The notes: generated by a model from the sequence alone, not told the origin. Shown: positions 27,814-58,973, counted from the stretch's first letter. The stretch is 64,000 nucleotides of DNA from an uncultured Desulfobulbaceae bacterium (GCA_945787325.1 CALZHP010000001.1:66214-130213), one strand, 5' to 3'. Numbers and translations: made by a program.

Positions 27814-28974
27814 ATGAAAAAGTATCTGATAATAGGTAATGGTGTTGCTGGCACCACTGCTGCAGAATACATACGTAAGCAGGATAATGAAGGCCAGATA
27901 ACTATAATATCAGATGAGACCATCCCATTCTATTACAGGACACGGCTTGCAGATTATATTGCCGGTGAAATTTCAGAAGATAAGCTTATTGCCCGCAAGG
28001 AGCACTGGTATAAAAACAAAGAGATTAACTTGATGATCTCCACTAGAATTACAGGTGGAAATCTCGATGAAAATTTTGTTAATATTGGGACCGGTGAAAA
28101 GATACATTATGACTCTTTATTACTTGCCACTGGAAGCAATTCTTTTATACCTCCAATAGAAGGTGTAAAAAAGGAAGGAGTATTCACCCTCAGATCAATT
28201 TGTGATGCCAATGCAATAGTAAGTGCTGCAGAACTAACAGATACAGTTGTTATTATTGGCGGTGGACTCTTGGGGCTTGAAGCTGGAAACGCATTAAGGA
28301 AGCTCGGCAAAAAAGTTTCAATAGTTGAGTTCTTCCCGAGACTTTTACCCAGACAACTTGATGAAGCTGGAGCCGATACACTGCAACACCTTCTTGAAGA
28401 AATGGGTTTTACATTCCGGCTTGGTGTATCAACTTCTAAAATATCAAGTGTTTGCAGTGAAACTGCAGTAGAACTCGATAATGGAGAAACACTGCATGCT
28501 GGTATTGTCATAATTTCTGCTGGAATCAGGCCGGACCTGTCACTCTCCCAGAAATTAGGCATAAAAGCCGACAAGGGAGTCCTTGTTGATAATCAAATGC
28601 TTACGAGTCATAATAATGTGTATGCAGCCGGCGACGTCGCTCAATATAAAAACTTTCTCTACGGCATCTGGCCTGCCGCCATGGAACAGGGAATAATTGC
28701 CGGTATTAACATGGGTGGCGGTAAAGCTTTCTATAGTGGGTCCGCTATGGCAACCACATTAAAAGTTGCGGGGCTTGACGTTGCTTCGGCAGGCAATATC
28801 GATAATGAGAACAGGCTTGAAAGCCGGCTGGAATCAACCGACCGGACCTACAGAAAATATGTATTGGATAACGAAATAGTTGTAGGGTGTATTATGGTTG
28901 GTGATACTAAAGGTTTCAGTCAAGCAAAAAAGGCCATATCAGAACATAAGAGAATTTCTGATGTTGATATTTGA
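27814..28974 (+). CDS. FAD/NAD(P)H-dependent pyridine nucleotide-disulfide-family oxidoreductase, likely NADH:rubredoxin oxidoreductase
   Basis: Two Rossmann motifs (IIGNGVAGTTAA and IIGGGLLGLEAG) and AAGDVA. Starts 84 nt downstream of the rubredoxin gene. The function is assigned by context. Confidence 0.75.
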   Translation: MKKYLIIGNGVAGTTAAEYIRKQDNEGQITIISDETIPFYYRTRLADYIAGEISEDKLIARKEHWYKNKEINLMISTRITGGNLDENFVNIGTGEKIHYDSLLLATGSNSFIPPIEGVKKEGVFTLRSICDANAIVSAAELTDTVVIIGGGLLGLEAGNALRKLGKKVSIVEFFPRLLPRQLDEAGADTLQHLLEEMGFTFRLGVSTSKISSVCSETAVELDNGETLHAGIVIISAGIRPDLSLSQKLGIKADKGVLVDNQMLTSHNNVYAAGDVAQYKNFLYGIWPAAMEQGIIAGINMGGGKAFYSGSAMATTLKVAGLDVASAGNIDNENRLESRLESTDRTYRKYVLDNEIVVGCIMVGDTKGFSQAKKAISEHKRISDVDI

Positions 28975-28989
28975 AGTTTTCTTTCAATG

Positions 28990-30054
28990 TTAATGCTTTC
29001 GTTTTTGTATTCTTCTGAATTCAGGTAACAGCTCTAAAAATGCTTTAAAAATTCTGGGATCAAAGTGACTCCCGTTGCCCTCATTCATTATGGATAAAAC
29101 TTTTACCTCGGGAAATGCCGGCCGGTAAACCCTGTCATATGATAAAGCATCATATACATCAGCTATAGCAACAATTCGCGCAGATTCAGGTATTTCTTCT
29201 CCTTCAAGCCCTAGGGGGTACCCGGAACCGTCCCATTTCTCATGATGAGATTGTGCAATTTCACTGGCCAATTGGAGTAATGGTATGTCCGACCCTCCGA
29301 GGATACCTGCCCCAATCTGAGAGTGAGTTTTTATTGTTTCGAACTCTTCAGCAGTCAGTTTGCCTGGCTTCAGTAAAATGGAATCAGCAATTCCTATCTT
29401 GCCAACATCATGCATAGGAGCTGCAATCCTGATCTTGTCTACTTCCTCTGGTGACCAGCCAATATTTTGAGCAAGCATAGCTGAAACAGCACCTATACGC
29501 CTGATATGCTCACCTGTATCATCATCGCGATATTCAGCGGCCCAGACAAGGCGCATGGCAATTTCTTCCTCACGGCGCCTGATGTCTGCCGTGCGTTCGC
29601 TTACTTCCTGCTCAAGTTTTCTTTCATACTCTAAACTTTCAACAGTCAACCGCCTTCTTTCAAGAGAATTCACAACATTGATAATTATCTCGTTTTTGTC
29701 AAATGGCTTTATCATGTATCCGTAAGCGCCAAGTTCCAACGCATGAATCGCGATGTTTTTTTCATCAACTGCTGTCGCCATAATTACTGCCAAATCAGGA
29801 TATGAATTTTTGGTGAATTTTAATAGTTCAATTCCTGATTTACCCGGCATGTTTATATCGGAAATGAGCAATTTGTAAGAATTCTTATCAAGCATTTGCA
29901 GGGCATCATCTGTACTTTCAGCTATATCACACAAATAACCTTCCGGCTCAAGCCAACGAGCAAGCGTTTTACAGATATATAATTCATCGTCTACAATAAG
30001 AATTCTGGAAGCATCTTCAGAATAGTCAGCAGCTAAATTCTCCATGACAAACAT
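28990..30054 (-). CDS. Response regulator with HD-GYP output domain (RpfG-like)
   Basis: REC domain (ILIVDDE, LLISDINMPGKSG, MIKPF) plus HD-GYP domain (PMHDVGKIG, HHEKWDGSGYPLGL). Confidence 0.9.
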   Translation of the reverse strand: MFVMENLAADYSEDASRILIVDDELYICKTLARWLEPEGYLCDIAESTDDALQMLDKNSYKLLISDINMPGKSGIELLKFTKNSYPDLAVIMATAVDEKNIAIHALELGAYGYMIKPFDKNEIIINVVNSLERRRLTVESLEYERKLEQEVSERTADIRRREEEIAMRLVWAAEYRDDDTGEHIRRIGAVSAMLAQNIGWSPEEVDKIRIAAPMHDVGKIGIADSILLKPGKLTAEEFETIKTHSQIGAGILGGSDIPLLQLASEIAQSHHEKWDGSGYPLGLEGEEIPESARIVAIADVYDALSYDRVYRPAFPEVKVLSIMNEGNGSHFDPRIFKAFLELLPEFRRIQKRKH

Positions 30055-32256: not shown

Positions 32257-33168
32257 CTAACTTCTTTTCTTTTTCAGTGAATAATTGGCGGCTTCCCAAC
32301 CAGCAACACAACCTTCACCAACTGCTTTTGCCATCTGATATGGCTGTCCGGAAATGTCTCCGGCGGCAAAAATCCCCGCAATATTTGTCTTCTGTTTTTT
32401 GTCTGTATCTATGTGGGTAAAAGTTTCCTGGTCGAGTTGAACTCCTAAATTTGTTGCCAGTTCTATAGCACCCTTGGCACCAAGTTCGATAAAGATCCCT
32501 TCAACATCCAGGTTTTCTTCATCTTCCAAAATAAGACCATCTACCATGTTTACACCGGTAATTTCTTTTACCCAGTTTTCATCCAGTACTTTCACATTGC
32601 TGGAATTCAATTTTTCTTTTAATTCATTTGTGACAGTGAGACCTTTCGTTATCAGGAACACATCCGAAGCATACCCAAGCAAAGTCAGAGCCCCGTCAAC
32701 AGCAGCACTTTCATTTCCCACGACTGCAACTCTCACATTCCGATAAAAATTAGCGTCGCAGTCAACACAATAACTGACACCTTTGCCGGACAGTTCTTTT
32801 TCTCCTTTTACCTTCAGTTTCTTCCTTGAGGTCCCAGTTGCAAAAATCACCGACCTCGCCTGTAAATCTGTCCCGCTTTCTGTTTTTATTAAAAATAATG
32901 AGTCATTCTGATCAATGTGAAGTACATCCTCTTCAAGAACTTTGGCACCGAATCTTTTTATCTGATTAATTCCAGTCTCCAACAGCTCTTGTCCCTCTTT
33001 AACACCATCTATACATAAGTAGTTCTCAACATGGGCCCAATATAAGCTGCTTCTTTCAATACGACCCAATACTGTCACGCTGGCTTTTTTACGAACCGCG
33101 TGGACAGCGGCCTGCAAACCAGCAGGTCCTGCACCTATGATAACAACATCAATTATATTCTGGACCAT
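32257..33168 (-). CDS. Thioredoxin-reductase-like flavoprotein with degenerate NADPH-binding motifs
   Basis: FAD Rossmann VIIGAGPAGLQAA, redox CVDC (GVSYCVDCDANFY), and C-terminal FAAGD. The GGGNxAxEEA position reads GNESAAVDGA, and the HRRxxxR position reads ITKGLTV. Confidence 0.8.
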   Translation of the reverse strand: MVQNIIDVVIIGAGPAGLQAAVHAVRKKASVTVLGRIERSSLYWAHVENYLCIDGVKEGQELLETGINQIKRFGAKVLEEDVLHIDQNDSLFLIKTESGTDLQARSVIFATGTSRKKLKVKGEKELSGKGVSYCVDCDANFYRNVRVAVVGNESAAVDGALTLLGYASDVFLITKGLTVTNELKEKLNSSNVKVLDENWVKEITGVNMVDGLILEDEENLDVEGIFIELGAKGAIELATNLGVQLDQETFTHIDTDKKQKTNIAGIFAAGDISGQPYQMAKAVGEGCVAGWEAANYSLKKKRS

Positions 33169-33638
33169 GTGTTTTCTCCTCTGAAAGCTATATATAAATA
33201 CAATACAATTATTAATAAAAGATCTTCTAGACAGATAAGTACCTATGGGAACAAGTCCCTATCAAACTCAAATTAATATATGAATTAAAATCAGTAAATA
33301 AAGGTTCCCTACAAAATTATCTTCTGTTTAAGCTCATTCTCATACATGTACAAAGATCAATTTAAAAAAATAAACATATCCAATGAAAGAGACGAGATTA
33401 AATAAAATTAGTTCTGTAGTCCATATATTTTCAATTCATTATTAATTTCCTTTTCATGGTCGACATTATATAAATTATCGACTATATTAGATCGTTTTTA
33501 GCTATTTAAATTCATGTTTTACAATTTGATTTTCTTAAAAAATAAATATCCACTTTAGAAATTATTAGCTGCTAACTGGCAGATTTATTTAATACGAACA
33601 AAAGCTTATCGGCTCTGTTATTAATATAGATAATTATA

Positions 33639-34883
33639 ATGACCGAATCTCCTGAAAAGCAGAGGATTGTTATAACCGGTGTTGGTCTGGCATCTCCAAA
33701 CGCTGACAACTTAATTGAGTTCCGACAAAAAGTGATTGACGGTCAAAGCGGTATCAGCGAAATTGATCTCCGTTACGTTGGCAGAGTTCCAGCAGGAATA
33801 TGTTCATTTGCTGAAACGAAGTACCGTAAAAAAAAGGAAAATAAAAGAGGAACAAGAGCCGGCTGCCTTGGAGTTTATGTAGCTCATGAAGCAATAAATG
33901 ATGCCCAAATTGATTTCACTGAGTACGACCCTAATAAAACAGGAGTGTATATTGGACTTACAGAACACGGTACAGTTGAAACTGAAAACGAAATTTATAA
34001 TATAAGTCAGTTCGATTACAACACTGACTACTGGACACATCACCATAATCCAAGAACAGTATTAAATAATCCCGCCGGAGAAATAACCATGAGTCTGGGA
34101 ATTACCGGACCACATTATTCTATTGGCGGAGCCTGTGCTGCAGGTAATGCAGCGCTGATCCAGGGTGCACAAATGTTACAGTTGGGTGATGTTGACCTTG
34201 CCCTGGCCGGAGGAATCTCAGAAAGTACCGGATCATTTGGAATATTTGCAAGCTTCAAAGCACAGAATGCACTCGCTGCTCATGATGATCCTGCAAAAGC
34301 ATGCCGCCCTTTTGATATGAACAGAAATGGCATTGTTGTTTCAGAAGGAGCGTGTCTTTATACACTTGAAAGACTGGATGACGCATTAAAGAGAGGCGCC
34401 AGAATTTATGGTGAAATTGTCGGTTATGCCATGAACTCTGATGCACGGGATTTTGTCTTGCCTTATGGCAAAAGACAAGCTGAATGTATGATTAAAGCTT
34501 TGGATCGCGCAGGCCTTAAACCTGAAGATATTGATATTGTGAACACACATGCCACTGGCACAAAACAAGGTGATATAGAGGAATGTTCAGCGGTAAGAGA
34601 AGTATTTGCAAACAGCTCTTCAACGTATATAAATAATACAAAATGTATTATAGGTCACGCTATGGGTGCAGCAGGCGTTCTTGAACTTGCCGGCAACCTG
34701 CAAGCTTTTGAAGATAACATCGTTCACCCTACAACAAATCTAGAAAATCTTGACCCAATGTGCAACCTTCCAAATCTTGTACAAAATGAAGCTAAAAAGA
34801 TAAAAAATGTTAGAACTATTTTGAATAATTCCTTCGGTATGGTAGGAATCAATTCCGTAGTTATAATTAAAAAATACGAATGA
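33639..34883 (+). CDS. Beta-ketoacyl-ACP synthase (KAS I/II type, divergent)
   Basis: 414 aa with Cys-His-His triad contexts GGACAAGNAA, NTHATGTKQGD and IGHAMGAAG. Confidence 0.85.
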   Translation: MTESPEKQRIVITGVGLASPNADNLIEFRQKVIDGQSGISEIDLRYVGRVPAGICSFAETKYRKKKENKRGTRAGCLGVYVAHEAINDAQIDFTEYDPNKTGVYIGLTEHGTVETENEIYNISQFDYNTDYWTHHHNPRTVLNNPAGEITMSLGITGPHYSIGGACAAGNAALIQGAQMLQLGDVDLALAGGISESTGSFGIFASFKAQNALAAHDDPAKACRPFDMNRNGIVVSEGACLYTLERLDDALKRGARIYGEIVGYAMNSDARDFVLPYGKRQAECMIKALDRAGLKPEDIDIVNTHATGTKQGDIEECSAVREVFANSSSTYINNTKCIIGHAMGAAGVLELAGNLQAFEDNIVHPTTNLENLDPMCNLPNLVQNEAKKIKNVRTILNNSFGMVGINSVVIIKKYE

Positions 34884-34920
34884 GGATTTATATAGCTGCA
34901 ATGTTAAGGAGAAATACTCA

Positions 34921-35172
34921 ATGACACTTGAAGAAATTAAAAATGTAATTATTGAAATCATACAGGATATAGACGAGGATGCCGACCTCAGTAGCCTCAA
35001 TCCCAAGGAAGCTCTTCGTGATCAGCTTGATCTTGATTCGATGGACTTTCTTGACATTGTTATGGAACTGCGTAAACGATACAAAATCCAGATACCTGAA
35101 GCCGATTATCCTGAGCTAGCCTCACTTGACAGCTGCGTCAACTACCTCGGACCAAGGCTTCAGAGTTCTTAA
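34921..35172 (+). CDS. Acyl carrier protein (dedicated, non-AcpP type)
   Basis: 83 aa, acidic, with a phosphopantetheine-site-like LDLDSMDFLDIVMEL. Confidence 0.8.
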   Translation: MTLEEIKNVIIEIIQDIDEDADLSSLNPKEALRDQLDLDSMDFLDIVMELRKRYKIQIPEADYPELASLDSCVNYLGPRLQSS

Positions 35173-35180
35173 AAAGGACA

Positions 35181-36617
35181 TTGAGCAGCTATTCCCTCAT
35201 TATCATTGGTGGCGGCCTTTCAGGGCTCGCCGCCGGTATACGATTCGCCCGGTTTGGTGAAAATGTTCTCATCCTCGAAAAACATTCCAGGATAGGTGGT
35301 CTTAATTCGTATTACTATAGAAAAGGATTCCTTCTCGAAACCGGGTTGCATGCCATAACCAATTTTGCCCCACCCGACGTAAAAAGTGCGCCTATTAACA
35401 GGTTGTTTCGGCAGTTAAAAATTTCTCGACAACAGGTGGGTTTTCACGAACAGTTCTCAAGTCGTATATATTTCCAAGACCGGCCAACTCTTCATTTTTC
35501 AAACGATTTTAATTTGTTGAAAGATGAAATATCAAGACACTTCCCTGAATCCATCGATCGTTTCATCAGTTTCGTTAGTGAAATTGACAGAATCAATGCT
35601 TTCGTACCTGGGCCTCACGTTTCTGCCAGGAAAAAAATTCTTGCGGCACTTAACAACAAACTTCTGACAGACATGCTGCTCTGTCCCCTGCTGTTTTATG
35701 GGTCCAGCGAAGAAAATGACATGGACTTTAATCAGTTTATAATAATGTTCCGCTCTATCTATCAGGAGGGTTTTTTTCGACCTGATGGAACAATGAAGGA
35801 TTTTCTGCAACTTCTCAAACAGAAATATATTAATTTTGGGGGAAAGATACGACTTAAAACTGGAGTTAACAACATAATTTCAAGTAGTGAAAATAAAAGT
35901 TTTATACAGGGTGTACGCCTACATTCCGGTGAAGAAATAACTGCAGATTTTGTCCTTACTACAATAGGATACCCAGAAACCCTGAAGCTACTTAACAATA
36001 ATACTTCATTTAAAAAAAATAAAATTGATTCCTTGAAAGGAAAGCTTACTTTTACTGAATCAATTCATATCCTTCCTGCAGAAACCAAAAATAAGATCAC
36101 CAGCGACCAGACTATAATTTTTTACAACATCAGTGATCATTTTCGCTATGAAAAGCCTGCTGAGGCTGTTGATATCAACAGTGGAGTTATTTGTTTCCCT
36201 GAAAATTTTAAAGACCTTCCTGAAAAAGATATTTTTCAGCTTCGCGTCACACACCAGGCAAACTATGATATTTGGAAGCAGGCCTCTATTAATAGAGAAT
36301 CTGATGAATACGTAAATATGAAAGACAGCTGGAATCAAAAATCTGTTAAAACGGTAAGTAAAATAATTGGGAATTATCAAGAAAACGTTGTATATGAAGA
36401 CTCCTTTACCCCTGTAACTATTGAAAAGTATACAGGCAGAGCACAAGGCGCTATATACGGTAGCGCCTGCAAGTTAAAGGATGGAAAGATCAGGAATGAA
36501 TACGGCGCCTATGAAAATTTATATATAGCCGGAACAGATCAGGGATATCTGGGAATTATTGGTTCCATGCTGAGTGGAGTTTCAATTGTTAATCAGCATA
36601 TCTTGGGAAAAGTTTAA
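35181..36617 (+). CDS. FAD-dependent oxidoreductase, phytoene-desaturase/amine-oxidase superfamily (copy 1)
   Basis: TTG start 8 nt after the ACP stop. The N-terminal dinucleotide fold IIIGGGLSGLAAGIRFARFGENVLILEKHSRIGG begins at residue 6. 478 aa. Confidence 0.75.
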   Translation: MSSYSLIIIGGGLSGLAAGIRFARFGENVLILEKHSRIGGLNSYYYRKGFLLETGLHAITNFAPPDVKSAPINRLFRQLKISRQQVGFHEQFSSRIYFQDRPTLHFSNDFNLLKDEISRHFPESIDRFISFVSEIDRINAFVPGPHVSARKKILAALNNKLLTDMLLCPLLFYGSSEENDMDFNQFIIMFRSIYQEGFFRPDGTMKDFLQLLKQKYINFGGKIRLKTGVNNIISSSENKSFIQGVRLHSGEEITADFVLTTIGYPETLKLLNNNTSFKKNKIDSLKGKLTFTESIHILPAETKNKITSDQTIIFYNISDHFRYEKPAEAVDINSGVICFPENFKDLPEKDIFQLRVTHQANYDIWKQASINRESDEYVNMKDSWNQKSVKTVSKIIGNYQENVVYEDSFTPVTIEKYTGRAQGAIYGSACKLKDGKIRNEYGAYENLYIAGTDQGYLGIIGSMLSGVSIVNQHILGKV

Positions 36618-36747
36618 ATAGATAAACCTGGTCTAAAATATAGATAACCAGTATATTTTTTCAAATACTCCAAAACCACTCCGGAAGTTTTCCAACTTAA
36701 TTTATACGAAAAGACAACACCATAAAAAGTATAAATCATTCATTACA

Positions 36748-38166
36748 ATGTCACTTAAATCCTTAGATACCGCTTCAGAAAGTTATGATGCAATAGTTAT
36801 CGGTTCCGGGCTGGGCGGTCTAACTACTGCAAACCGCTTGGCAAACGCCGGACATAGTATTCTTCTTGTCGAACACCATCATCAGTTGGGCGGTCTGGCA
36901 ACATGGTTTAAAAGAAAAGGCCATATTTTTGATGTTTCATTGCACGGTTTTCCTTACGGGATGGTCAAAACATGCCGTAAATACTGGAATCGCGCCATAA
37001 TGGACTCTATTGTACAACTGAAAAACATTGTATTTGACAACCCACAGTTTTCCTTGCAAACAACTTTTGAGCGCCAGGATTTTACCGACATATTGCAGAA
37101 TAAATTCGGTATTAAGAACGAGGTTATTCAAAATTTCTTCTCAACAATAGGCAGCATGAATTTTTACGATGACCAGTCTATGACCACAAGGGAACTTTTT
37201 GAAAAGTTTTTCCCCGGTCGATCCGATGTTCATCGTCTGTTAATGGAACCAATAACATATGCAAATGGTTCCACCATGGAAGACCCAGCTATTACTTATG
37301 GTATTGTCTTTTCAAATTTCATGAATAAGGGTGTTTTTACTTTTAAAGGCGGTACTGATCAGCTCATTGGCATGATGGAAGAAGAACTGGTTAAAAACGG
37401 TGTGAAAATCTGTACAAGAGCCAAGGTTAACAGAATTGTCATTGAAAAGGGGCAAGTTCGTGGAGTCATGGCCGAGGGAAATGGTGAAGAACGTTTTATA
37501 CAAGCCCCCTGTGTGATATCCAATAGCGGCATACTTAACACAATCAATAACCTTGCAGGGAAAGATGCCTTTCCAAAAGAATTTCAGGAAGCTACTAACA
37601 AAGTCAGAGTCAATAACTCTAGTTGTCAGGTATATATTGGTATAAAGGACGGAGAAATTATTGATGATGTCGGCGACCTTCTTTTCACATCAAAAGCAGA
37701 ACATTTTTCATCAGAAGAGCTTCTCGACATGCACACAAAAAGTAAAACTTTCTCTGTCTACTACCCCAAAACCAGACCGGGCCATAACCGTTACACAATA
37801 GTTGCTTCAATGAACGCACGGTATGATGACTGGGCGCATTTAACCGATGATAATTATCAGCAGGAGAAAGATAATTTGATTAAGCGCACTATGAGCGACC
37901 TTGAAAAATACCTTCCTGGAGTTACCGATAAATGCGACTGGCTTGAAGCTGCCACTCCAAAAACCTTTCACAGATATACCTTTCATACGAAAGGTACCTC
38001 TTTTGGAACCAAGTTTGAAGGTCTAGACGTTTCCAGATCTATCTCCAAAGTTGTAAAAGGATTGTTTCATGTCGGCTCTGTTGGTATTATCATGTCCGGC
38101 TGGCTTGGCGCCATTAACTATGGTGTTATTGTTGCTAACGACGCCGATGCATATTTACGAAGCTGA
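36748..38166 (+). CDS. FAD-dependent oxidoreductase, phytoene-desaturase/amine-oxidase superfamily (copy 2)
   Basis: AIVIGSGLGGLTTANRLANAGHSILLVEHHHQLGG. 472 aa, with the same overall layout as copy 1. Confidence 0.75.
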   Translation: MSLKSLDTASESYDAIVIGSGLGGLTTANRLANAGHSILLVEHHHQLGGLATWFKRKGHIFDVSLHGFPYGMVKTCRKYWNRAIMDSIVQLKNIVFDNPQFSLQTTFERQDFTDILQNKFGIKNEVIQNFFSTIGSMNFYDDQSMTTRELFEKFFPGRSDVHRLLMEPITYANGSTMEDPAITYGIVFSNFMNKGVFTFKGGTDQLIGMMEEELVKNGVKICTRAKVNRIVIEKGQVRGVMAEGNGEERFIQAPCVISNSGILNTINNLAGKDAFPKEFQEATNKVRVNNSSCQVYIGIKDGEIIDDVGDLLFTSKAEHFSSEELLDMHTKSKTFSVYYPKTRPGHNRYTIVASMNARYDDWAHLTDDNYQQEKDNLIKRTMSDLEKYLPGVTDKCDWLEAATPKTFHRYTFHTKGTSFGTKFEGLDVSRSISKVVKGLFHVGSVGIIMSGWLGAINYGVIVANDADAYLRS

Positions 38167-38224
38167 TTAAATATTTGGATCACATATGAAACTCTGTAAT
38201 ATATTTTAATTTTTTGGAGAGAAA

Positions 38225-38965
38225 ATGCCTGATTTCAAAGGACAAAAAGCAATAATTACCGGAGCAACTCGTGGCATCGGTAAAGCGTTGGCAATTTCTT
38301 TTCTTGAAGCGGGTGCAACTGTGATTGGCACTTTTGCAGGAAATGATGAAGCTGCCGAAATATTTAAATCTGAAAATTCCCGATTTTCCGATCGCTTTTA
38401 TCTTTATAAATTTGATGTTGCCGATCACAGTGCTGTTGCAGATTTTTATAAAGAGGTTGAAGAAAAGTTCGATACCATCGATATCCTAGTAAATAATGCA
38501 GGAATTCGAAGAGACAAGGTTCTTGCCATGATGCCTCCTGAAGACTGGAATAAGGTTGTGGATGTTAATCTTACCGGCACTTACAACATGAGCAAACATG
38601 CTGTTCTTCTCATGATGAAACAAAAATACGGCCGAATAATTCATATTACTTCACCCATGGCGCACCTGGGTTTTGCCGGCCAGTCTAATTATGCAGCATC
38701 CAAGGCAGGTCAAATAGGCATCATGCATTCCCTTTCAAAAGAAGTTGCAAAAAGGAAAATAACTGTAAACTGCGTTTCTCCCGGATTTATTGAAACAGGC
38801 CTGTTGGACGGGTTGTCAGATGAACAGCTTTCAGAATACCGTAAACAAATACCTTTGAAGCGATTCGGGAAACCTGATGAAGTTGCTTCCGCTGTGTTGT
38901 TTCTTGCGGGCCGAGACGCGTCATATATTACAGGGTCTGTTCTTGAGGTTGATGGTGGATTGTAA
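38225..38965 (+). CDS. 3-oxoacyl-ACP reductase (FabG-like SDR)
   Basis: TGATRGIGKA cofactor motif, NNAG, and catalytic YAASKAG. Confidence 0.85.
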   Translation: MPDFKGQKAIITGATRGIGKALAISFLEAGATVIGTFAGNDEAAEIFKSENSRFSDRFYLYKFDVADHSAVADFYKEVEEKFDTIDILVNNAGIRRDKVLAMMPPEDWNKVVDVNLTGTYNMSKHAVLLMMKQKYGRIIHITSPMAHLGFAGQSNYAASKAGQIGIMHSLSKEVAKRKITVNCVSPGFIETGLLDGLSDEQLSEYRKQIPLKRFGKPDEVASAVLFLAGRDASYITGSVLEVDGGL

Positions 38966-39422
38966 TAATACAACAGGACAAGAAGAAATTTATAAATACA
39001 TCCCGCATCGTCCACCTTTTCTTTGGGTCGACACAATTCTATCCCTGAAATCCGATAGTATTGAAACAGAAAAAATGTTTCATGATACGCTTGATTTTTT
39101 TCAAGGGCATTATCCGAAATATCCCCTGGTTCCTGGAGTTATACTATGTGAGGCTGTTTTTCAGTCCGGTGCCATACTTATATCTTCCCAACTGAAAGAG
39201 GGGAAAAATAATGATAATCCTGAGAAGGTACCGGTCCTTACTAGAATCAACTCTGCAAAATTCAAACGTGAAGTTCTTCCAGGAGACATTATACGCATGA
39301 AAGTAAATCTTTCAGAAACTATTGGTAATGCATGGTTTCTGAAGGGTACTGTATTGATAAATGACAAGGTAGCAGTAAAAGTTGACTTTGCCTGTGCTGT
39401 GACTGCCAATAAGAAGACCTGA
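38952..39422 (+). CDS. 3-hydroxyacyl-ACP dehydratase (FabZ/FabA-like hotdog fold)
   Basis: The track ORF starts at 38877 inside fabG. The ATG at 38952 (a 14-nt overlap with the fabG-like stop) gives MVDCNNTTGQEEIYKYIPHRPPFLWVD... with the motif GHYPKYPLVPGVILCEA. 156 aa. Confidence 0.8.
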   Translation: MVDCNNTTGQEEIYKYIPHRPPFLWVDTILSLKSDSIETEKMFHDTLDFFQGHYPKYPLVPGVILCEAVFQSGAILISSQLKEGKNNDNPEKVPVLTRINSAKFKREVLPGDIIRMKVNLSETIGNAWFLKGTVLINDKVAVKVDFACAVTANKKT

Positions 39423-39612
39423 TGAATATCGGTAGCGCAAACACCACTGCGCAGCAAAACTGTCTATAATAGTGATAATATCGCAGCGGCCTCAGGTTTT
39501 TTATCTTAGAATTTCTCAGCACCAAATAAATAAAAACTTTTGCAATACTTAGATAGTTCGATAGAAAATCTTTAATTATATCAATATGTATGAAATGAAT
39601 ATATACGGTTTG

Positions 39613-39640
39613 TTGACATGCAGAAGACAAACATTATAAA
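39613..39640 (+). promoter_or_regulatory. Putative sigma-70 promoter for tolQ
   Basis: TTGACA (39613-39618), 16-nt spacer, TATAAA (39635-39640). Lies about 50 nt upstream of the tolQ start. Confidence 0.35.
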
Positions 39641-39692
39641 ATACATCAATTTATCCAGCTCAAATCAATAATCAAAAAAGAGGATATCATAA

Positions 39693-40388
39693 GTGCAGCT
39701 AGGTATATTAGATATGATCTTGAACGCAGGAGCAATGGTGAAGTTTGTCATGTTCCTCCTGCTAGCCTTTTCAGTTATTTCCTGGACCATAATCCTGATG
39801 AAGCACAAATTGTACAGAAAGGCACAAAAAGAATCTCGCGGTTTCCTTGAAACCTTCTGGAAGTGTGCAAATCTTGCCGAAGCAAACAGGGCGGCACGTA
39901 AAGTTGACGTAAGCCCTGAAGCCGCTATTTTCAGACTTGGTTATAGTGAGCTTCAGAAAATAAGCAAAAGTTTTACTGCAGAAAACGGTGCTGAAGAAAC
40001 TCTTGATATGCAGCTGGCAACAATGGATAACCTTAAAAGAACTTTACGTAAAGCTGAGAACATAGAATCCAGCAGGCTAAGCAAAGCCCTCCCATTTCTT
40101 GCCACAACAGGCAGCTCAACACCTTTTATCGGCCTTTTTGGAACAGTATGGGGCATTATGACCTCGTTTCAGGAAATAGGTTTGCGTGGATCCGCATCTC
40201 TTGCGGTTGTTGCACCAGGTATTTCAGAGGCCCTGGTTGCTACTGCGGCAGGTTTGGCTGTAGCTATACCTGCAGTTATATTTTATAATCACTATTCAAA
40301 CAGGCTTGCTGCGATTGAAAGTGAAATGCAAAGTTTCTCAGCTGATCTTTTGAACCTAGTGGAAAGAGATCTTATCGCCGGTAACTGA
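39693..40388 (+). CDS. tolQ: Tol-Pal system protein TolQ (MotA/TolQ/ExbB channel)
   Basis: Three TM spans and the C-terminal motif GLFGTVWGIM...APGISEALVATAAGL. Followed by tolR, tolA and tolB. Confidence 0.85.
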   Translation: MQLGILDMILNAGAMVKFVMFLLLAFSVISWTIILMKHKLYRKAQKESRGFLETFWKCANLAEANRAARKVDVSPEAAIFRLGYSELQKISKSFTAENGAEETLDMQLATMDNLKRTLRKAENIESSRLSKALPFLATTGSSTPFIGLFGTVWGIMTSFQEIGLRGSASLAVVAPGISEALVATAAGLAVAIPAVIFYNHYSNRLAAIESEMQSFSADLLNLVERDLIAGN

Positions 40389-40416
40389 CCAGGCAATAAA
40401 GGACGGAATCTGTAAA

Positions 40417-40836
40417 ATGGCATTCATACAGGGAAACGGACGAAAAGGACTAGTTTCGGAAATCAATGTAACGCCACTTGTTGACGTTATGCTAGTTCTG
40501 TTAATCATTTTTATGGTAACTGCACCGATGATGACACAGGGTGTAGACGTTGATCTTCCTGAAACGACTACGACACCCTTGCGACAGAAGGAAGATCCAT
40601 TGGTAGTAGCTATCAACAAGAAAGGTGAAATCTATCTGAACAAAATAAAACTTGATCAGACATTGCTCAGACAACAGCTAACGGCAATGCCGAAGACAGA
40701 TCAACAAAAGCCGATTTTTTTAAAGGCTGACAAAAAAGTACCTTACGGAATAGTTGTATCGGTTATGGCCGATATAAAGGAAGCAGGTTTCGAGAAACTC
40801 GGAATGATTACCAAGCCTGCCGACACGAGACCTTGA
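40417..40836 (+). CDS. tolR: Tol-Pal system protein TolR (ExbD/TolR family)
   Basis: EINVTPLVDVMLVLLIIFMVTAP with the conserved Asp in the TM span. 139 aa. Confidence 0.85.
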   Translation: MAFIQGNGRKGLVSEINVTPLVDVMLVLLIIFMVTAPMMTQGVDVDLPETTTTPLRQKEDPLVVAINKKGEIYLNKIKLDQTLLRQQLTAMPKTDQQKPIFLKADKKVPYGIVVSVMADIKEAGFEKLGMITKPADTRP

Positions 40837-40839
40837 AGT

Positions 40840-41715
40840 ATGAATGTGCAGTTTATTAATAATCCTGCAGGACATAAAAGATTCGGGCCGGAATATAAAA
40901 CACCGCTGGCCCAGGCAGTTACAATTCATCTACTTGTTCTGGTAACCGCAATTGCAATGCCGTATTTTGTCCACCGCCGGCCCCATTTTCCCGAAGTTTA
41001 TACAATTGACCTGGTAAGCGTTCCAGATATAAGCCGGCCGGCACCCAGCAAACAATCGGCACCTGCCCCACAACAACCTGCTAAAAAAGCTGTTTCAATT
41101 ACAAAGCAAACTGTCCCTCCGGTCCAAACAACGCCTGAAAAAATAATTTCTCTCAAACCACGAAAACAGAAAACACGGATCAAACCAAAACCGGATCTGC
41201 AAAAAATAGAAAGGATTAAGCGTGAGAGAGCCCTTGAGAAAGTCCGAGCTGAAGAACAAGCTAAACGCCTGAAACAGGAAGCCAGAAGTGCTGCTCAAAG
41301 TGCCTTGTCAACCCTGCAACAGTCTATACGCGCATCCGGCGCTGCTCAAACAGCGGCAGAAGGTATGAAATCAAATGAGAGAGCAGCGAGCAGCGGTCCA
41401 GCCGGATCAAACGTAGCACTGGATGAAATAAAGAAAAGATACATTGCTGATGTTTATCAACAAATTCAATTGTACTGGGTACTCCCGGATCTACAGAATT
41501 GGGATGATTCACTTAAGTCAGTGTATGTTATTAAAGTTCGTTTTGATGGTATAGTTTCAAAAAGTTATTTTGAAAAAAAATCCGAAAATATTTATTTTAA
41601 TCAATTTGTAGCAAAAGCAGTTCGAGACGCTTCGCCGCTACCTCCATTCCCTAAAGAAATTGATGAAACTTTTATTGAATTAGGCCTACGGTTTACACCT
41701 GGTGGCATATTTTGA
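40840..41715 (+). CDS. tolA: TolA-like protein (TonB/TolA C-terminal domain)
   Basis: N-terminal TM, a Pro/Lys-rich linker, a charged helix (KRERALEKVRAEEQAKRLKQEARSAA), and a C-terminal TonB/TolA-type domain. Sits between tolR and tolB. Confidence 0.7.
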   Translation: MNVQFINNPAGHKRFGPEYKTPLAQAVTIHLLVLVTAIAMPYFVHRRPHFPEVYTIDLVSVPDISRPAPSKQSAPAPQQPAKKAVSITKQTVPPVQTTPEKIISLKPRKQKTRIKPKPDLQKIERIKRERALEKVRAEEQAKRLKQEARSAAQSALSTLQQSIRASGAAQTAAEGMKSNERAASSGPAGSNVALDEIKKRYIADVYQQIQLYWVLPDLQNWDDSLKSVYVIKVRFDGIVSKSYFEKKSENIYFNQFVAKAVRDASPLPPFPKEIDETFIELGLRFTPGGIF

Positions 41716-41751
41716 AGAGTGACTTAATATAAAATATCAAGAGTCTTAATT

Positions 41752-43032
41752 ATGAAATGCTTTATATCCCTGATGCTTTTGGCATTCAACATCCTTTTTA
41801 CTGTTTCTATATCTGAAGCTCGGATTTATCTCGATTTTACATCTCCAGATTTTCGCAAAATTCCGGTAGCTGTTCCCTATTTTGTAGAAAAATCACGGCC
41901 CGACCAATATATTGAACAGGGCAAAAGTATGGCAGATATACTTTCAAAAGGTTTATCGTTTCATGGTTTTATATCCGTAATTTCACCGGATACATATGGC
42001 GGACGGCAGAACACCGACTGGGAGGAGCTAAATGCACATTTTGCTGTTTTGGCCCAATACAGCAATAGTAACGACGGCATAATCCTCGAATTGCGCATAC
42101 TTGACATCGAAGAAAAACGAATGCTGTTTGGCAGACGTTATAAAGGCCCCTGGAAAAAACACAAACAAATGATCCTCAAATTTTGTGATGAGGTCATTGA
42201 GCAACTTACCGGTGAACCTGGTATAAGCCTATCAAAAATCGCTTTTGTATCTGATGCAACAGGTCACAAGGAAATTTACGTTTCAGATATTCTGGGTGAT
42301 GATATTCGCCAGGTTACACGACATCATAACCTGGCAGTTTCTCCCAGGTTTTCAGCAGATGGTAAAAAAATATCATATTCATCATATCACCGTGGAAATC
42401 AGGATCTGTACATTACAGATCTTTCACAAAGCAAAACTACCCGGGCCTTATCAAGACGCCGAGGTATGAACCTTGCTCCTGCCTGGTCTCCTAAAGGTAA
42501 AAACATGGTCATTACCTTAAGTAAAGACGGGAATCCGGATCTTTACCTTATGAATGACAGGGGTGAAGTAATTAAAAGGCTTACAGCAAATTCCGGTTTA
42601 AATGTTTCACCATCATGGTCACCGGACGGTAGTAAAATTACTTTTGTCTCCGATCGTAGCGGTACACCGCAAATCTATGTGATGGATGTAAAAAGCAGAA
42701 GAGTAAAACGTATAACATTTGAGGGTAGCGATAACAGCGAACCATCATGGTCACCCAAAGGTGACTGGATAGCCTACGCCGGATTATATGAGGGCAATTA
42801 CCATATTTTTATTATCCGCCCAGAGGGAGGAACACCAGTTAGAATTACGAAATACTGGGGAGATCACGAATCTCCATGCTGGTCACCGGACGGGCGGCAA
42901 TTAGTTTTTACACGAATTCGCAATGGTGAAAAGAAAATCTGCGCGATTTTTAAAAACGGTTCAGGAATGAGAACATTATTTAAAGCCGCAGGGAATCAGA
43001 ATTCGCCACAATGGTCAAAAAGATTGAATTGA
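41752..43032 (+). CDS. tolB: Tol-Pal system beta-propeller protein TolB
   Basis: Signal peptide followed by repeated propeller blades (PRFSADGKKISY, PAWSPKGKNM, PSWSPDGSKITF, PSWSPKGDWIAY, PCWSPDGRQLVF). Confidence 0.9.
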   Translation: MKCFISLMLLAFNILFTVSISEARIYLDFTSPDFRKIPVAVPYFVEKSRPDQYIEQGKSMADILSKGLSFHGFISVISPDTYGGRQNTDWEELNAHFAVLAQYSNSNDGIILELRILDIEEKRMLFGRRYKGPWKKHKQMILKFCDEVIEQLTGEPGISLSKIAFVSDATGHKEIYVSDILGDDIRQVTRHHNLAVSPRFSADGKKISYSSYHRGNQDLYITDLSQSKTTRALSRRRGMNLAPAWSPKGKNMVITLSKDGNPDLYLMNDRGEVIKRLTANSGLNVSPSWSPDGSKITFVSDRSGTPQIYVMDVKSRRVKRITFEGSDNSEPSWSPKGDWIAYAGLYEGNYHIFIIRPEGGTPVRITKYWGDHESPCWSPDGRQLVFTRIRNGEKKICAIFKNGSGMRTLFKAAGNQNSPQWSKRLN

Positions 43033-43167
43033 ATTTTCAGCGAGGGACTATTTTTTTATTTTCTAAAAAGATATCTTTTGTATATAACAAAAGCGATAAT
43101 TAACAAAACAGTAAAACCTTGCACTTTAGTTTATAGCTTTTAACAACTATCTGCAAACGAGGGAAAC

Positions 43168-44175
43168 ATGAATAAAACCAAATTAAACTTTCTGCTCATA
43201 ATATGTTTGTCCCCTTTTCTGGTTCAATGCTTTGCAACCACTCAGGACATGCAAAACACTAATATCCGGATGCGTACTATTGATCAAAAAGTCGTTGCCG
43301 TGCAAAAAGACTTGAAACAGACAATGGGGAAAACCGTTCAACAGGTCCAATCGCGCCAGGCAAGAGTAAGTGATCAGGTGGATATACAGCAGACCGAAAT
43401 TCTTGAATTAAAAGCCCAGCTGGAAGAAAGCGCTCATTACAACCGCCTGCTCCAGGAAAGGAACAAAGAATTTGCTACCACACTGAATTCAAGATTTATG
43501 TCGATGGAAGACTCATTAAACACAAAGTTTGATCAGCTATCCAGCAGGCTTGATGAGCTTGACCGGAAACTCATTATATCTGAAAACTCTCTCAGAGAAG
43601 TTAAAGAGGCCCGAGCTAAGGAAGCTGCTCAGCGTGCCAGGGAAGCTGCCCAGCGTGCCAGGGAAGCCGCAATGGCTGCGGAAAGAAAAGCTCGTGCTGC
43701 AAAATCTTCCCGCAAATCAGGACCGGTTGAGATCACTCCCGATAAACGCAAAACAAAACCTTCAGATGAAAAAACCAGTAACACTTCCACCAACAAGAAG
43801 AAGAGTTCAGATTCTTCGGAAGCCCTCTATAATAAAGGCCTCTCAGAATTCAAGGGAAAGAATTACAGTAAAGCAATCAATATATTCACAGAGTATCTGA
43901 ACAATTACCCCAATGGAAATAGAGCTGTAAACTCTATTTTCTGGACGGGAGAGACCTTATATGCTCAAAAAGAATTCGAACTGGCGATTCTTGAATACCA
44001 GAAAGTAATAGCCGAACACCCACGACACTCCAAGGTACCTGACGCCTTGCTAAAACAGGCTATGGCTTTTGAAAAAATAAACGATATTGATACGGCCCAA
44101 GTAATTTATAATAAGTTAGTAAAAGAGTACCCCTCAAGTGCTCAAGCGCAGACTGCAAAAAAACGAATTAATTAA
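43168..44175 (+). CDS. cpoB: CpoB/YbgF-like coiled-coil plus TPR protein
   Basis: Signal peptide, a long coiled coil, a Lys/Ser-rich linker, and C-terminal TPRs (ALYNKGLSEFKGKNYSKAINIFTEYL..., ALLKQAMAFEKINDIDTAQVIYNKLVKEYP). Lies downstream of tolB. Confidence 0.75.
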   Translation: MNKTKLNFLLIICLSPFLVQCFATTQDMQNTNIRMRTIDQKVVAVQKDLKQTMGKTVQQVQSRQARVSDQVDIQQTEILELKAQLEESAHYNRLLQERNKEFATTLNSRFMSMEDSLNTKFDQLSSRLDELDRKLIISENSLREVKEARAKEAAQRAREAAQRAREAAMAAERKARAAKSSRKSGPVEITPDKRKTKPSDEKTSNTSTNKKKSSDSSEALYNKGLSEFKGKNYSKAINIFTEYLNNYPNGNRAVNSIFWTGETLYAQKEFELAILEYQKVIAEHPRHSKVPDALLKQAMAFEKINDIDTAQVIYNKLVKEYPSSAQAQTAKKRIN

Positions 44176-45707: not shown

Positions 45708-46457
45708 ATGCATTCTATAAAAATCATGAAATCAAGATTGGACAAATTACTGGTAATACAAAAACTGGCACCAACCAGGCAAAAGGCACAAGCAATGATC
45801 GGGGCCGGACAGGTCTTTGTAAACGGACATCTTGCTGATAAGGCCGGGAGCAGCTTCCCCATCGATAGTAAAATTGAGTTAAAAGGCAACCTCATACCCT
45901 TCGTCAGTCGCGGAGGGTTGAAGCTTGAAAAGGGTCTCAATTATTTTAACATTGATCCAGGCGGATTTATCTGTGCAGACATAGGAGCATCAACAGGTGG
46001 ATTTACAGATTGTCTATTGCAACGAGGCGCAAGTAAAATATATTCAATCGATGTTGGTTATGGCCAACTGGCCTGGAAGCTGCGCCAGGATCCAAGAGTA
46101 GTTGTAATGGAAAGAACCAACGCGAGACATTTAACGAAAAACGACATTCAAGACATTCTGGATCTTGCAGTTGTCGACGCCTCATTTATTTCGCTTAAAC
46201 TGCTATTACCACCGTTAATTCAATTTTTCAATGACAGTGTTTCAATCCTTGCTCTTATTAAGCCGCAATTTGAAGCTGGTAAGGGGAAGGTCGGTAAAGG
46301 TGGAGTGGTTAAGGACCCGAACGTGCATGTGGAAGTGACTTTAGATATAATTAATTTTGCTAAATCGCATCAATTAAAATGTATGGGAGTAACGCCCTCC
46401 CCCATTCTTGGCCCCAAGGGCAACATAGAGTTTTTAGTTCATTTCTTGAAGAATTGA
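45708..46457 (+). CDS. tlyA: TlyA-family rRNA 2'-O-methyltransferase
   Basis: S4-like N-terminus (RLDKLLVIQKLAPTRQKAQAMIGAGQVFVNG) plus an FtsJ-type SAM fold (CADIGASTGGFTDCLLQRGA, VVDASFISL). Confidence 0.85.
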   Translation: MHSIKIMKSRLDKLLVIQKLAPTRQKAQAMIGAGQVFVNGHLADKAGSSFPIDSKIELKGNLIPFVSRGGLKLEKGLNYFNIDPGGFICADIGASTGGFTDCLLQRGASKIYSIDVGYGQLAWKLRQDPRVVVMERTNARHLTKNDIQDILDLAVVDASFISLKLLLPPLIQFFNDSVSILALIKPQFEAGKGKVGKGGVVKDPNVHVEVTLDIINFAKSHQLKCMGVTPSPILGPKGNIEFLVHFLKN

Positions 46458-57899: not shown

Positions 57900-58973
57900 T
57901 CAACAATTAAACTGGAACCCTTTATTGGTAAAAAGATTTAGTGAGGCATCAACAACCTCCGGATCATAAAGACTTCCTCTGTTCCTGGTAATCTCCTCAA
58001 ATGCCTGCTCAATCCCTAGCGCTGCCCTGTATGGGCGATGAGATGACATTGCTTCAACGACATCTGCTACTGCAATTACTCTAGCTTCAAGAAGAATATC
58101 TTTACCTGAAAGCCCATATGGATACCCTGATCCATCTAAGCGCTCATGATGCTGTAATACAATTTCGGCAATAGGCCATTGAAAATCAATCTCTTTTAAT
58201 ATTTCATATCCGGCACGTGGATGACTTTTAATCAGATTGTATTCTACATCGGTGATTTCACCAGGTTTGCTGAGAATTTCAGATGGAATACAAATTTTGC
58301 CAAGATCATGAATAACTCCGGCCATACGTATACCATCCACCTGGTCTTCACTGAGCCCCATTTCCTGCGCAATAGCTCTGGCCAAGTCTGTCGCCCTTCT
58401 CTGATGTCCAGCTGTATACAGATCTCGTGTTTCAATTATCAACGACATTGCCTGGATCGTTCCTGCAAGATTTTGGCGAAGTTTTGCCATTGTTTTTTGT
58501 AATTCTTCACCAGCTTCTATTTTATTTGTAACATCTTTTGAAATTTTAATTACTGCATCAGGGAAACCGTTCTTATCCCGAGACACGACATTAGATGTGC
58601 CTCGCAAATATATTGTTTTTCCGTTTTTTAATTCAACTTTACTCTGATGATTATGGGTTTTTCCATCCATAAAAGTCTGAATTGCTATGCAGGATGAATA
58701 ATTACAAGGTTCACTTCTTCCACAATAGCTTTCATAGCACTTAGTCCCAACTAGATTGTCACCGAACTGTCTCCTAGCTGTTTCATTGACCCAGATTATA
58801 TTTAGATTCCTGTCGACCATGCTCATGTGATCATCAACCGATTCTAGAATAATGTTTAATCTGGACTCGCTCTCCTGAAGCATTAGTTGCGCTACATGTT
58901 TACACCTTAAAAGCTCCTCTCTTAAACTTTTATTCTGATTCAGTAATTCTTGATACGTTAGTTTGCCGGTCAC
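57900..58973 (-). CDS. PAS domain-containing HD-GYP phosphohydrolase
   Basis: N-terminal coiled coil plus a PAS-like domain with Cys residues, then HD-GYP motifs VIHDLGKICIP and QHHERLDGSGYPYGL. Confidence 0.85.
   Translation of the reverse strand: MTGKLTYQELLNQNKSLREELLRCKHVAQLMLQESESRLNIILESVDDHMSMVDRNLNIIWVNETARRQFGDNLVGTKCYESYCGRSEPCNYSSCIAIQTFMDGKTHNHQSKVELKNGKTIYLRGTSNVVSRDKNGFPDAVIKISKDVTNKIEAGEELQKTMAKLRQNLAGTIQAMSLIIETRDLYTAGHQRRATDLARAIAQEMGLSEDQVDGIRMAGVIHDLGKICIPSEILSKPGEITDVEYNLIKSHPRAGYEILKEIDFQWPIAEIVLQHHERLDGSGYPYGLSGKDILLEARVIAVADVVEAMSSHRPYRAALGIEQAFEEITRNRGSLYDPEVVDASLNLFTNKGFQFNC

Follow-up and report, generated by a model that had tools for sequence, protein, structure and literature searches.

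A stretch of 64,000 nucleotides from an uncultured Desulfobulbaceae bacterium (GCA_945787325.1, CALZHP010000001.1:66214-130213; hereafter the window) carries, at positions 33639-39422, six co-directional open reading frames (ORFs) on the + strand, arranged in the order KS-ACP-FP1-FP2-KR-DH according to the ORF calls and translations, that is, a beta-ketoacyl-ACP synthase (KS), an acyl carrier protein (ACP), two flavoproteins (FP1 and FP2), a 3-oxoacyl-ACP reductase (KR) and a dehydratase (DH). This six-gene unit is real, it is conserved across at least five phyla and it is not an already characterised pathway. Besides its gene content and conservation, we observe a linkage of related modules to genes of FabI-type enoyl reductases (ER) and of the Ole enzymes of olefin synthesis, and a natural fusion of FP2 with a DH domain. 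With moderate confidence, we propose that the module would be a dissociated type II synthase with an ACP of its own, needing neither oxygen nor a megasynthase of the Pfa type to make an unsaturated acyl chain, most likely a polyunsaturated one with methylene-interrupted double bonds. A more specific and more tentative version is that of a type II synthase of polyunsaturated fatty acids (PUFA), in which two CrtISO-like flavoenzymes would install cis double bonds on ACP-bound enoyl intermediates, supplying OleABCD and possibly also membrane PUFA.

Distribution and conservation of the gene order

Related loci were collected from one genome per species of GTDB with an alignment of seven FP2 sequences as query, which gave at least 568 confirmed matches; all counts given here out of 80 refer to the best 80 of these at least 568 FP2 loci. 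Identities among the 80 were 65-76% in Desulfobulbales and 58-63% in Nitrospinota, Dehalococcoidia, Planctomycetota and Verrucomicrobiota (Opitutales). Gene order was established for each locus by searching its ORFs with the six window proteins, and all flanking ORFs were clustered. The order KS-ACP-FP1-FP2-KR-DH is kept in essentially all of the long-enough loci of Desulfobulbales, Nitrospinota and Dehalococcoidia, and in Planctomycetota and Verrucomicrobiota it is often KS-ACP-FP1-FP2-DH, FP2-DH or FP2 alone. KR is conserved after FP2 in 52/80 loci, and DH comes directly after FP2 in those planctomycetal and verrucomicrobial loci without KR. Median identities to the window proteins in the other phyla are 63% for KS, 60% for FP2, 57% for ACP, 56% for KR, 43.5% for DH and 40.5% for FP1. 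Chance by no means accounts for an arrangement that is found again in the same order in dozens of genomes across several phyla. A first-pass annotation of the window, made from the sequence alone, had named the gene order in other genomes beforehand as a test of its proposal, and outside the source genome this order turned out to be strongly conserved. Other lineages have alaS, ispF, dxr and cdsA families upstream, housekeeping genes with no relation to the module.

The two flavoproteins

At 23% identity FP1 and FP2 are only distantly paralogous, and both have the FAD Rossmann motif GxGxxG...E...GG followed by NAD_binding_8 and Amino_oxidase domains. CrtD and CrtISO are the nearest named families, and neither protein reaches any family cut-off: FP2 scores 119 bits against carot_isom/CrtISO (TIGR02730, cut-off 587), 117 against CrtD (TIGR02733, cut-off 550) and 87.4 against crtI_fam (TIGR02734, cut-off 238), and the corresponding values for FP1 are 49, 66 and 54.3 bits. 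The CrtI/amine-oxidase type given to them in the first-pass annotation holds, then, at the level of the superfamily. AlphaFold2 models (mean predicted local distance difference test of 91.5 for FP2 and 85.3 for FP1) have their best PDB fold match in the CrtD-type desaturase 4REP, with a template modelling (TM) score of 0.72 and identities of 18% (FP2) and 17% (FP1), followed by 3KA7 and the CrtI structure 4DGK within a TM range of 0.55-0.72; this fold search confirms the superfamily and does not discriminate functionally between its members. FP1 and FP2 share with the carotenoid enzymes CrtI, CrtD and CrtISO the FAD Rossmann fold and the three-domain architecture seen in 4DGK and 4REP, but differ from them in sequence (14-18% identity) and in sitting in a context like that of fatty acid synthesis (FAS), with an ACP and no crt genes nearby. 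Membership in CrtI was rejected on these scores and on the lack of an association with crtB or crtE in the window or in the syntenic loci.

Of the module's components FP2 is the one found most widely, and it is among the most conserved, with orthologues 65-79% identical within Desulfobulbales and about 60% across phyla; FP1 is the less conserved flavoprotein (44-60% and about 40%, respectively). The closest relatives of FP2, 73-79% identical, come from Desulfobulbaceae, Desulfocapsa or Thermodesulfobacteriota metagenome-assembled genomes, which places the window in a Desulfobulbales-like organism. FP2 has thousands of relatives in the databases, and yet its orthologous family is narrow at 50% clustering, with 161 clusters at E < 1e-30, many of them fragments.

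FP2 and DH are predicted to be functionally coupled, because they are adjacent in the lineages without KR and are fused in a metagenomic protein of 625 aa (P0124; contig L081, 2209-5792) that joins FP2 to a FabZ-like domain. The fusion gene is followed by genes of a short-chain dehydrogenase/reductase and a radical S-adenosylmethionine (SAM) protein, an arrangement reminiscent of anammox clusters. There are also loci where FP2 stands alone, with the other module genes not within 10 kb (L053, L062, L068, L079 and L028, the last from the cable-bacterium genome of Candidatus Electronema sp.); either the partner genes lie elsewhere or FP2 has an independent role there.

Condensing enzyme, carrier protein, reductase and dehydratase

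Comparison of the window proteins with Pfam and NCBIfam profiles at their curated cut-offs confirmed the first-pass family calls for KS, ACP, both flavoproteins, KR and DH. All six proteins score under the cut-offs of the corresponding housekeeping or carotenoid families, and we regard them on these scores as specialised paralogues. KS reaches 313 bits against the fabF model TIGR03150 (cut-off 493.75), which places it outside canonical FabF, and its best PDB matches are FabF structures at about 220 bits. Its Cys-His-His-Lys residues are kept in 51/51 orthologues. At its C-terminus (NSFGMVG) the gate GFGG of FabF has become G-M-[V/L/F]-G, where Met instead of Phe is likewise invariant in 51/51 orthologues, and a second gating-loop residue, Thr, is replaced by Val or Ile (residues numbered on E. 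coli FabF). As the catalytic residues are intact and the gating loop is invariantly changed, these sequences suggest an active condensing enzyme with altered handling of the acyl chain, taking non-standard acyl substrates.

The ACP falls below every NCBIfam equivalog cut-off for ACPs, and its attachment motif DLDSMD is kept in 38/53 orthologues. KR scores 282.2 bits against the FabG model TIGR01830 (cut-off 297.75), and DH 106.8 and 108.4 bits against the FabZ models TIGR01750 (cut-off 155.15) and NF000582 (cut-off 113). DH has the motif GHY..PG....E with a catalytic Glu of the FabZ type, conserved among its orthologues. Such scores, just under the cut-offs, are consistent with KR and DH being specialised paralogues with the same chemistry. 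DH is about equally near to canonical FabZ structures and to a group of unnamed dehydratase entries of the PDB, which we take to be the FabZ of anammox bacteria (amxFabZ).

Enoyl reductase and ole genes in related loci

A FabI-type reductase gene follows directly after DH in 29/80 loci, with FP1 and FP2 retained. This protein of 267 aa has the Y-x6-K motif, and FabI models match it at E 1e-50. The absence of an ER is for this reason a trait of the locus in this sub-lineage and not of the system, and the flavoproteins are unlikely to replace the ER, given that reductase and flavoproteins coexist in many clusters. This weakens the first of two options put forward in the first-pass annotation, namely that the flavoproteins stand in for the missing reductase. 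More support goes to the second, in which they make or move double bonds of intermediates held on ACP: the FP2-DH adjacency, the FP2-FabZ fusion and the oleABCD linkage speak for it, and here the chemistry itself is what we infer.

Within 10 kb, 33/80 loci have one or more genes of the Ole family, often directly behind the module, distributed as 22/39 in Desulfobulbales, 6/8 in Dehalococcoidia, 3/6 in Verrucomicrobiota and 2/14 in Planctomycetota; many contigs are truncated, so these counts are lower bounds. In Desulfobulbaceae (L023, L033, L034, L036, L037 and others) and Opitutales (L056, L063, L071) oleABCD comes after the module. The OleA-type thiolase scores 436 bits against NCBIfam PRK09258, and in phmmer searches the OleA-like proteins match 'synthase III' structures (3ROW, 4KU5 and related entries, presumably X. 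campestris OleA) at 1e-66 to 1e-70, with FabH-named structures at 1e-22 or worse. Its neighbours are an OleB-like hydrolase resembling haloalkane dehalogenases, OleC (olefin beta-lactone synthetase, NCBIfam E 3e-126) and OleD (2-alkyl-3-oxoalkanoate reductase, 373 bits). Genomes of the Desulfocapsa type have OleD and OleC on the opposite strand just past the tol genes. In Dehalococcoidia the OleA-type genes come directly before KS and belong to its operon, and genes of a phosphopantetheinyl transferase (PPTase) and FabD follow the FabI-like gene. Two clusters of this class (L047 and L074) have tandem duplicated OleA-like/KS(/ACP) units before FP1 and end in FabI-like, PPTase and FabD genes, with OleA present and no OleBCD nearby; by its gene content such a cluster would be a nearly self-sufficient synthase.

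The connection to ole was hidden from the first-pass annotation because the window holds no ole gene, and it reaches the window locus only by orthology, as neither the window nor its closest relatives have ole nearby. Evidently the module keeps a function where ole is not adjacent.

Comparison with known systems

The published precedent is the proposal made for Desulfotalea psychrophila, also of the Desulfobulbales, where C31:8 and C31:9 polyenes make up 5% of the lipids and no polyketide synthase of the PUFA type is present (PMC2649909). Type II FAS clusters with the adjacent flavoprotein genes DP2405 and DP2406 were pointed out there, and a novel anaerobic PUFA route was proposed, without experiment (PMC2649909). 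Shared with the window are the taxonomic order and two adjacent flavoproteins of the amine-oxidase family in a FASII-type cluster. That work (Rattray 2009) drew no link to oleABCD, then unknown, and described neither the six-gene order nor its spread across phyla (PMC2649909). What is new here is the FabI/ole linkage and the FP2-DH fusion as a functional anchor; full-text literature searches returned no paper that characterises the module or ties it to ole.

A known supply of polyunsaturated chains to Ole enzymes is that of the Pfa synthases. In Shewanella and Photobacterium C31:9 derives from 16:4n-3, which OleA takes directly off the ACPs of the Pfa synthase (PMC6463001), and in Geobacter bemidjiensis the genes stand in tandem as pfaDABC-oleABCD-pfaE (PMC4882568, PMC3098273). 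Like this system, the module would be an oxygen-independent acyl source on dedicated ACPs, and in Desulfobulbaceae and Opitutales it has the same position beside ole. They differ in their parts: Pfa is a type I multidomain megasynthase with dehydratase/isomerase domains of the FabA type and PfaD as ER, in contrast to the discrete single-domain proteins, FabZ-type DH and two CrtI-superfamily flavoproteins of the module. With 86 bits against the omega_3_PfaA model (cut-off 1010), KS lies outside the Pfa family. The published taxonomic range of ole (Delta- and Gammaproteobacteria, Planctomycetes, Verrucomicrobia, Chloroflexi and Actinobacteria) overlaps that of FP2 (PMC7158056).

A resemblance to proposals for anammox ladderane clusters had been noted from the start, and it is real at the level of the cluster (Rattray 2009, PMC2649909) and distant at the level of the flavoproteins. 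The candidate cluster kuste3603-3608 resembles the module in combining paralogues of FabZ and FabF with an ACP of its own and a flavoprotein of the CrtI superfamily, and comprises amxACP, amxFabZ, a FabF/FabF-mut heterodimer, a PDH-like protein and a B12-radical SAM protein (PMC10139942, PMC4790861). Its FabF pair is a heterodimer resembling KS and chain-length factor (CLF) (bioRxiv 10.64898/2026.05.19.726425), and on amxACP the enzyme amxFabZ acts preferentially on chains no longer than C8 (PMC10139942). The window ORFs, in contrast, include no inactive, CLF-like second KS and no radical SAM gene. Orthology was rejected, since kuste3607 is 28% identical to FP2 and kuste3336 23% to FP1 (sequences from S6 Table of PMC4790861), which makes them distant relatives.

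The earlier statement that this arrangement matches no characterised pathway was borne out, the features of aryl-polyene, biotin/pimelate and Pfa systems being absent. Aryl-polyene or flexirubin synthesis was rejected on the single KS, the low scores against ApeI-like (17 bits, cut-off 28.5) and FlxB (240, cut-off 340) models and the lack of accessory genes in the window. In Desulfovibrio, ACP/KS/KR/DH pimeloyl clusters are embedded among bioF, bioA, bioD and bioB. A cluster of this biotin-linked type was rejected as well, with no bio genes among the window ORFs or on the syntenic contigs, whose Pfam annotation contains no crt genes either.

Enoyl-ACP isomerases are known from anaerobic synthesis of unsaturated fatty acids, namely FabX in Helicobacter, FabM in Streptococcus and FabA in E. 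coli, and they include flavin- or crotonase-dependent types. In these systems the dehydratase product is diverted by moving or re-shaping its double bond and is then taken up by a dedicated KS, as it would be in the module; they differ in having unrelated folds, the housekeeping ACP and monounsaturated products.

Proposed function and alternatives

The steps proposed here and the product of the module are, all of them, what we infer from sequence and gene neighbourhood. KS would extend the chain on the dedicated ACP, and KR and the FabZ-type DH would yield trans-2-enoyl-ACP. FP1 and FP2 would act on this DH product, fixing cis double bonds that escape reduction, either by desaturation or by an isomerisation that is positional (trans-2 to cis-3), geometric (trans-2 to cis-2) or both. 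As a pure conjecture, the two flavoproteins might stand for the two operations that a methylene-interrupted all-cis chain calls for, one moving the bond to cis-3 and one turning trans into cis at C2. Saturating cycles would use the FabI-type reductase, encoded in the cluster in many lineages and presumably a housekeeping enzyme in the source genome. Where oleABCD is present, the dedicated ACP would hand its acyl chain to OleA, and the Ole enzymes would convert it into C31 polyolefins like those of D. psychrophila; with no ole nearby, the product would probably go to membrane lipids or to an unlinked Ole system. The best-supported way of reading the module, by analogy, is as pfa-ole logic built from different parts. 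For a role in supplying Ole the analogy has behind it the physical linkage in 33/80 loci, a linkage that the window and its nearest relatives do not have.

Several points weigh against this proposal. No CrtI-type desaturase is known to act on acyl-ACP or to give methylene-interrupted patterns, and those known extend conjugation beside existing double bonds. Searching the 64-kb window by tblastn with the FabI-like, OleA-D and PPTase proteins of related loci gave no match, its nearest relatives (L082, L084, L085) have no ole or FabI-like gene within 10 kb, and neither does any of the Nitrospinota loci have an ole gene within that distance (0/10), for which reason the role of the module there would be independent of Ole. 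That the 'phytoene dehydrogenase-like' proteins DP2405 and DP2406 are orthologues of FP1 and FP2 is a presumption from taxonomy and adjacency. Expression of the distant anammox homologues in E. coli led to no polyunsaturated fatty acids, and CrtI was not complemented by them (PMC4790861, PMC10139942); nor did the candidate genes give ladderanes there (PMC4790861). Lastly, the study of D. psychrophila did not determine where the double bonds of its polyenes lie (PMC2649909).

We regard as serious rivals a monounsaturated membrane role, a conjugated or cyclised specialised lipid, and a desaturation after Ole. The first would be an anaerobic route to monounsaturated fatty acids (ordinary or positional isomers) for membrane phospholipids, replacing FabA/FabB, FabM or FabX, with FP2 (with or without FP1) as trans-2/cis-3 enoyl-ACP isomerase, KS as a FabB-like cis-3 elongator and the ole linkage secondary. 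It agrees with the conserved core-genome context beside recR, dnaX, tadA and tol genes, with the retention of the module at 70-79% identity in lineages without nearby ole and with the lack of ole in all ten Nitrospinota loci; the altered gate of KS is also compatible with a FabB-like specialisation, and in D. psychrophila one set of C16:1/C18:1 isomers has the same isotope signature as the polyenes (PMC2649909). We nevertheless consider it unlikely, as a single isomerisation leaves unexplained two distinct flavoproteins and a private set of ACP, KR and often FabI, PPTase and FabD, together with the close operon linkage that ties the module to OleA or oleABCD in three phyla.

It is quite improbable, in our opinion, that the product is a specialised lipid in which KS, KR and DH build a conjugated polyenoyl-ACP whose reduction or cyclisation falls to the CrtI-like enzymes, in the manner of the phytoene-dehydrogenase-like enzymes of polycyclic tetramate macrolactam pathways or of the ladderane proposals. 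A locus with KS, KR and DH and no ER would suit such a product, as would the weak ApeI-like similarity of DH, the distant homology of the flavoproteins to two proteins of ladderane candidate clusters (kuste3607 and kuste3336) and the radical SAM gene after the FP2-FabZ fusion. However, neither a chain-length-factor partner nor a radical SAM gene is present in the window, which also lacks a starter-unit enzyme, an acyltransferase and an exporter, many orthologous clusters do have a FabI-type ER, and the conserved position in the core genome is unlike a typical secondary-metabolite island. D. psychrophila, moreover, has no detected ladderanes and its polyenes are acyclic (PMC2649909).

Less probable still is that the flavoproteins are saturases working in place of the enoyl-ACP reductase, in a complete alternative cycle leading to saturated chains. 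The CrtISO/RetSat branch of the superfamily does include a C=C saturase, one source labels an orthologue 'all-trans-retinol 13,14-reductase', and the window locus has no ER gene. Against this stand the retention of FP1 and FP2 beside a reductase with the Y-x6-K motif in the 29 loci described above, the redundancy of two different flavoproteins for one reduction and the presence of FabI elsewhere in the genome of D. psychrophila (Rattray 2009, PMC2649909).

CrtI-family enzymes desaturate long hydrocarbons beside existing double bonds. An action of the flavoproteins after Ole, desaturating a long, phytoene-like olefin with a central double bond into C31:8 and C31:9 with KS, ACP, KR and DH supplying acyl precursors only, would fit that habit, the module-linked ole genes and the polyene positions left undetermined in D. 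psychrophila (PMC2649909), but it is very improbable given that ACP-bound substrates are indicated by the fusion of FP2 to FabZ and its pairing with DH, that the module persists in lineages without nearby ole and that the C31:9 of other bacteria is methylene-interrupted and not conjugated (PMC4882568).

Genomic context of the module in the window

The features of the locus are listed in Table 1. The six co-directional genes, their gaps, the overlap and the motifs quoted in the first-pass annotation are all present in our ORFs and translations, with intergenic gaps of 37, 8, 130 and 58 nt from the ORF coordinates. The longest ORF for DH begins at 38877, and the internal ATG at 38952 gives the 14-nt overlap with KR; orthologue lengths of 140-160 aa are in line with this start.

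Table 1. Features of the six-gene module and its upstream flank (positions in the window).
Feature	Position	Strand	Description
thioredoxin-reductase-like flavoprotein, CVDC motif	32257-33168	-	divergent from KS
intergenic region, AT-rich, 470 bp, trxB-like(-)/KS(+) divergent	33169-33638	.	presumed operon promoter region
KS, FabF-like beta-ketoacyl-ACP synthase	33639-34883	+	414 aa; Pfam ketoacyl-synt N and C
ACP, dedicated acyl carrier protein	34921-35172	+	83 aa; PP-binding domain
FP1, FAD-dependent CrtI/amine-oxidase superfamily flavoprotein	35181-36617	+	478 aa, TTG start; Amino_oxidase, NAD_binding_8
FP2, FAD-dependent CrtI/CrtISO/CrtD superfamily flavoprotein	36748-38166	+	472 aa; Amino_oxidase/NAD_binding_8
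KR, FabG-like 3-oxoacyl-ACP reductase	38225-38965	+	246 aa; adh_short_C2 and KR domains
DH, FabZ-type 3-hydroxyacyl-ACP dehydratase	38952-39422	+	156 aa; FabA-like Pfam domain

Promoter matches in the intergenic region before KS are at consensus level only, promoter and terminator scans giving background, and an Rfam scan of 32900-39800 matched no RNA family. As already stated in the first-pass annotation for the cluster and its surroundings, the window ORFs included no gene for FabD, FabH, FabI, a thioesterase or an acyltransferase and no crt gene. Apart from the module, the window is core housekeeping: upstream are uvrC, pheST, thrS, recR, dnaX and tadA, and downstream tolQ, tolR, tolA, tolB and cpoB, then ampG and tlyA. 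The window shares the synteny recR...trxB-like(-), KS ACP FP1 FP2 KR DH, tolQRAB cpoB ampG tlyA with L082 (a contig of 1.2 Mb), L084 and L085.

The trxB-like neighbour is found also in Desulfocapsa-type loci, L082 and L084, being conserved in this sub-lineage only, and may either serve the flavoproteins as a redox partner or stand there by coincidence. Near it there is a rubredoxin-reductase-like gene (27814-28974, +), with a small rubredoxin gene alongside in L082 and L084. On the other side, the five genes from tolQ to cpoB (39693-44175) stand directly after DH, an adjacency limited to one sub-lineage of Desulfobulbales (18/39 loci). As tolB ends at 43032 and cpoB starts at 43168, with 135 bp between them, there is no pal gene at its usual place. 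Elsewhere in the window, three proteins of the HD-GYP type, all on the - strand (28990-30054, 46434-48164 and 57900-58973) and with response regulator, GAF and PAS-like fusion partners, suggest dense cyclic-di-GMP signalling in this region. The segment 56001-58000 has a GC content of 0.30, compared with about 0.40 elsewhere, and few long ORFs.

Significance for polyene-producing bacteria

The source of C31:9-type polyenes in bacteria without a Pfa synthase has been a question since 2009-2010, with D. psychrophila as the documented case. Some Planctomycetes and Opitutaceae are further producers of this kind; for Planctomyces maris and Opitutaceae TAV2 the production of C31:9 was reportedly described by Sukovich in 2010. 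In bacteria without the known PUFA synthase, the module may be the missing source of such polyunsaturated chains. For the phytoene-desaturase-like proteins of FAS-type clusters, ladderane candidates included, it is a concrete and tractable hypothesis, as there are cultured carriers (Desulforhopalus vacuolatus DSM 9700 and Desulfopila sp. IMCC35006) and the clusters, of 7-11 genes, are small enough for heterologous expression. If the proposal is true, it would be a third way to polyunsaturated acyl chains, beside FabA-type domains and oxygen-dependent desaturases, and would bring a new chemistry of the CrtI superfamily, on acyl-ACP, with a small gene set for oxygen-independent production of PUFA or polyolefins. 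It would also provide the first biochemical handle on the related flavoproteins of ladderane clusters and explain the supply of polyolefins (C31:8 and C31:9) and possibly of membrane PUFA in Desulfobulbales, Planctomycetota, Verrucomicrobiota, Dehalococcoidia and Nitrospinota.

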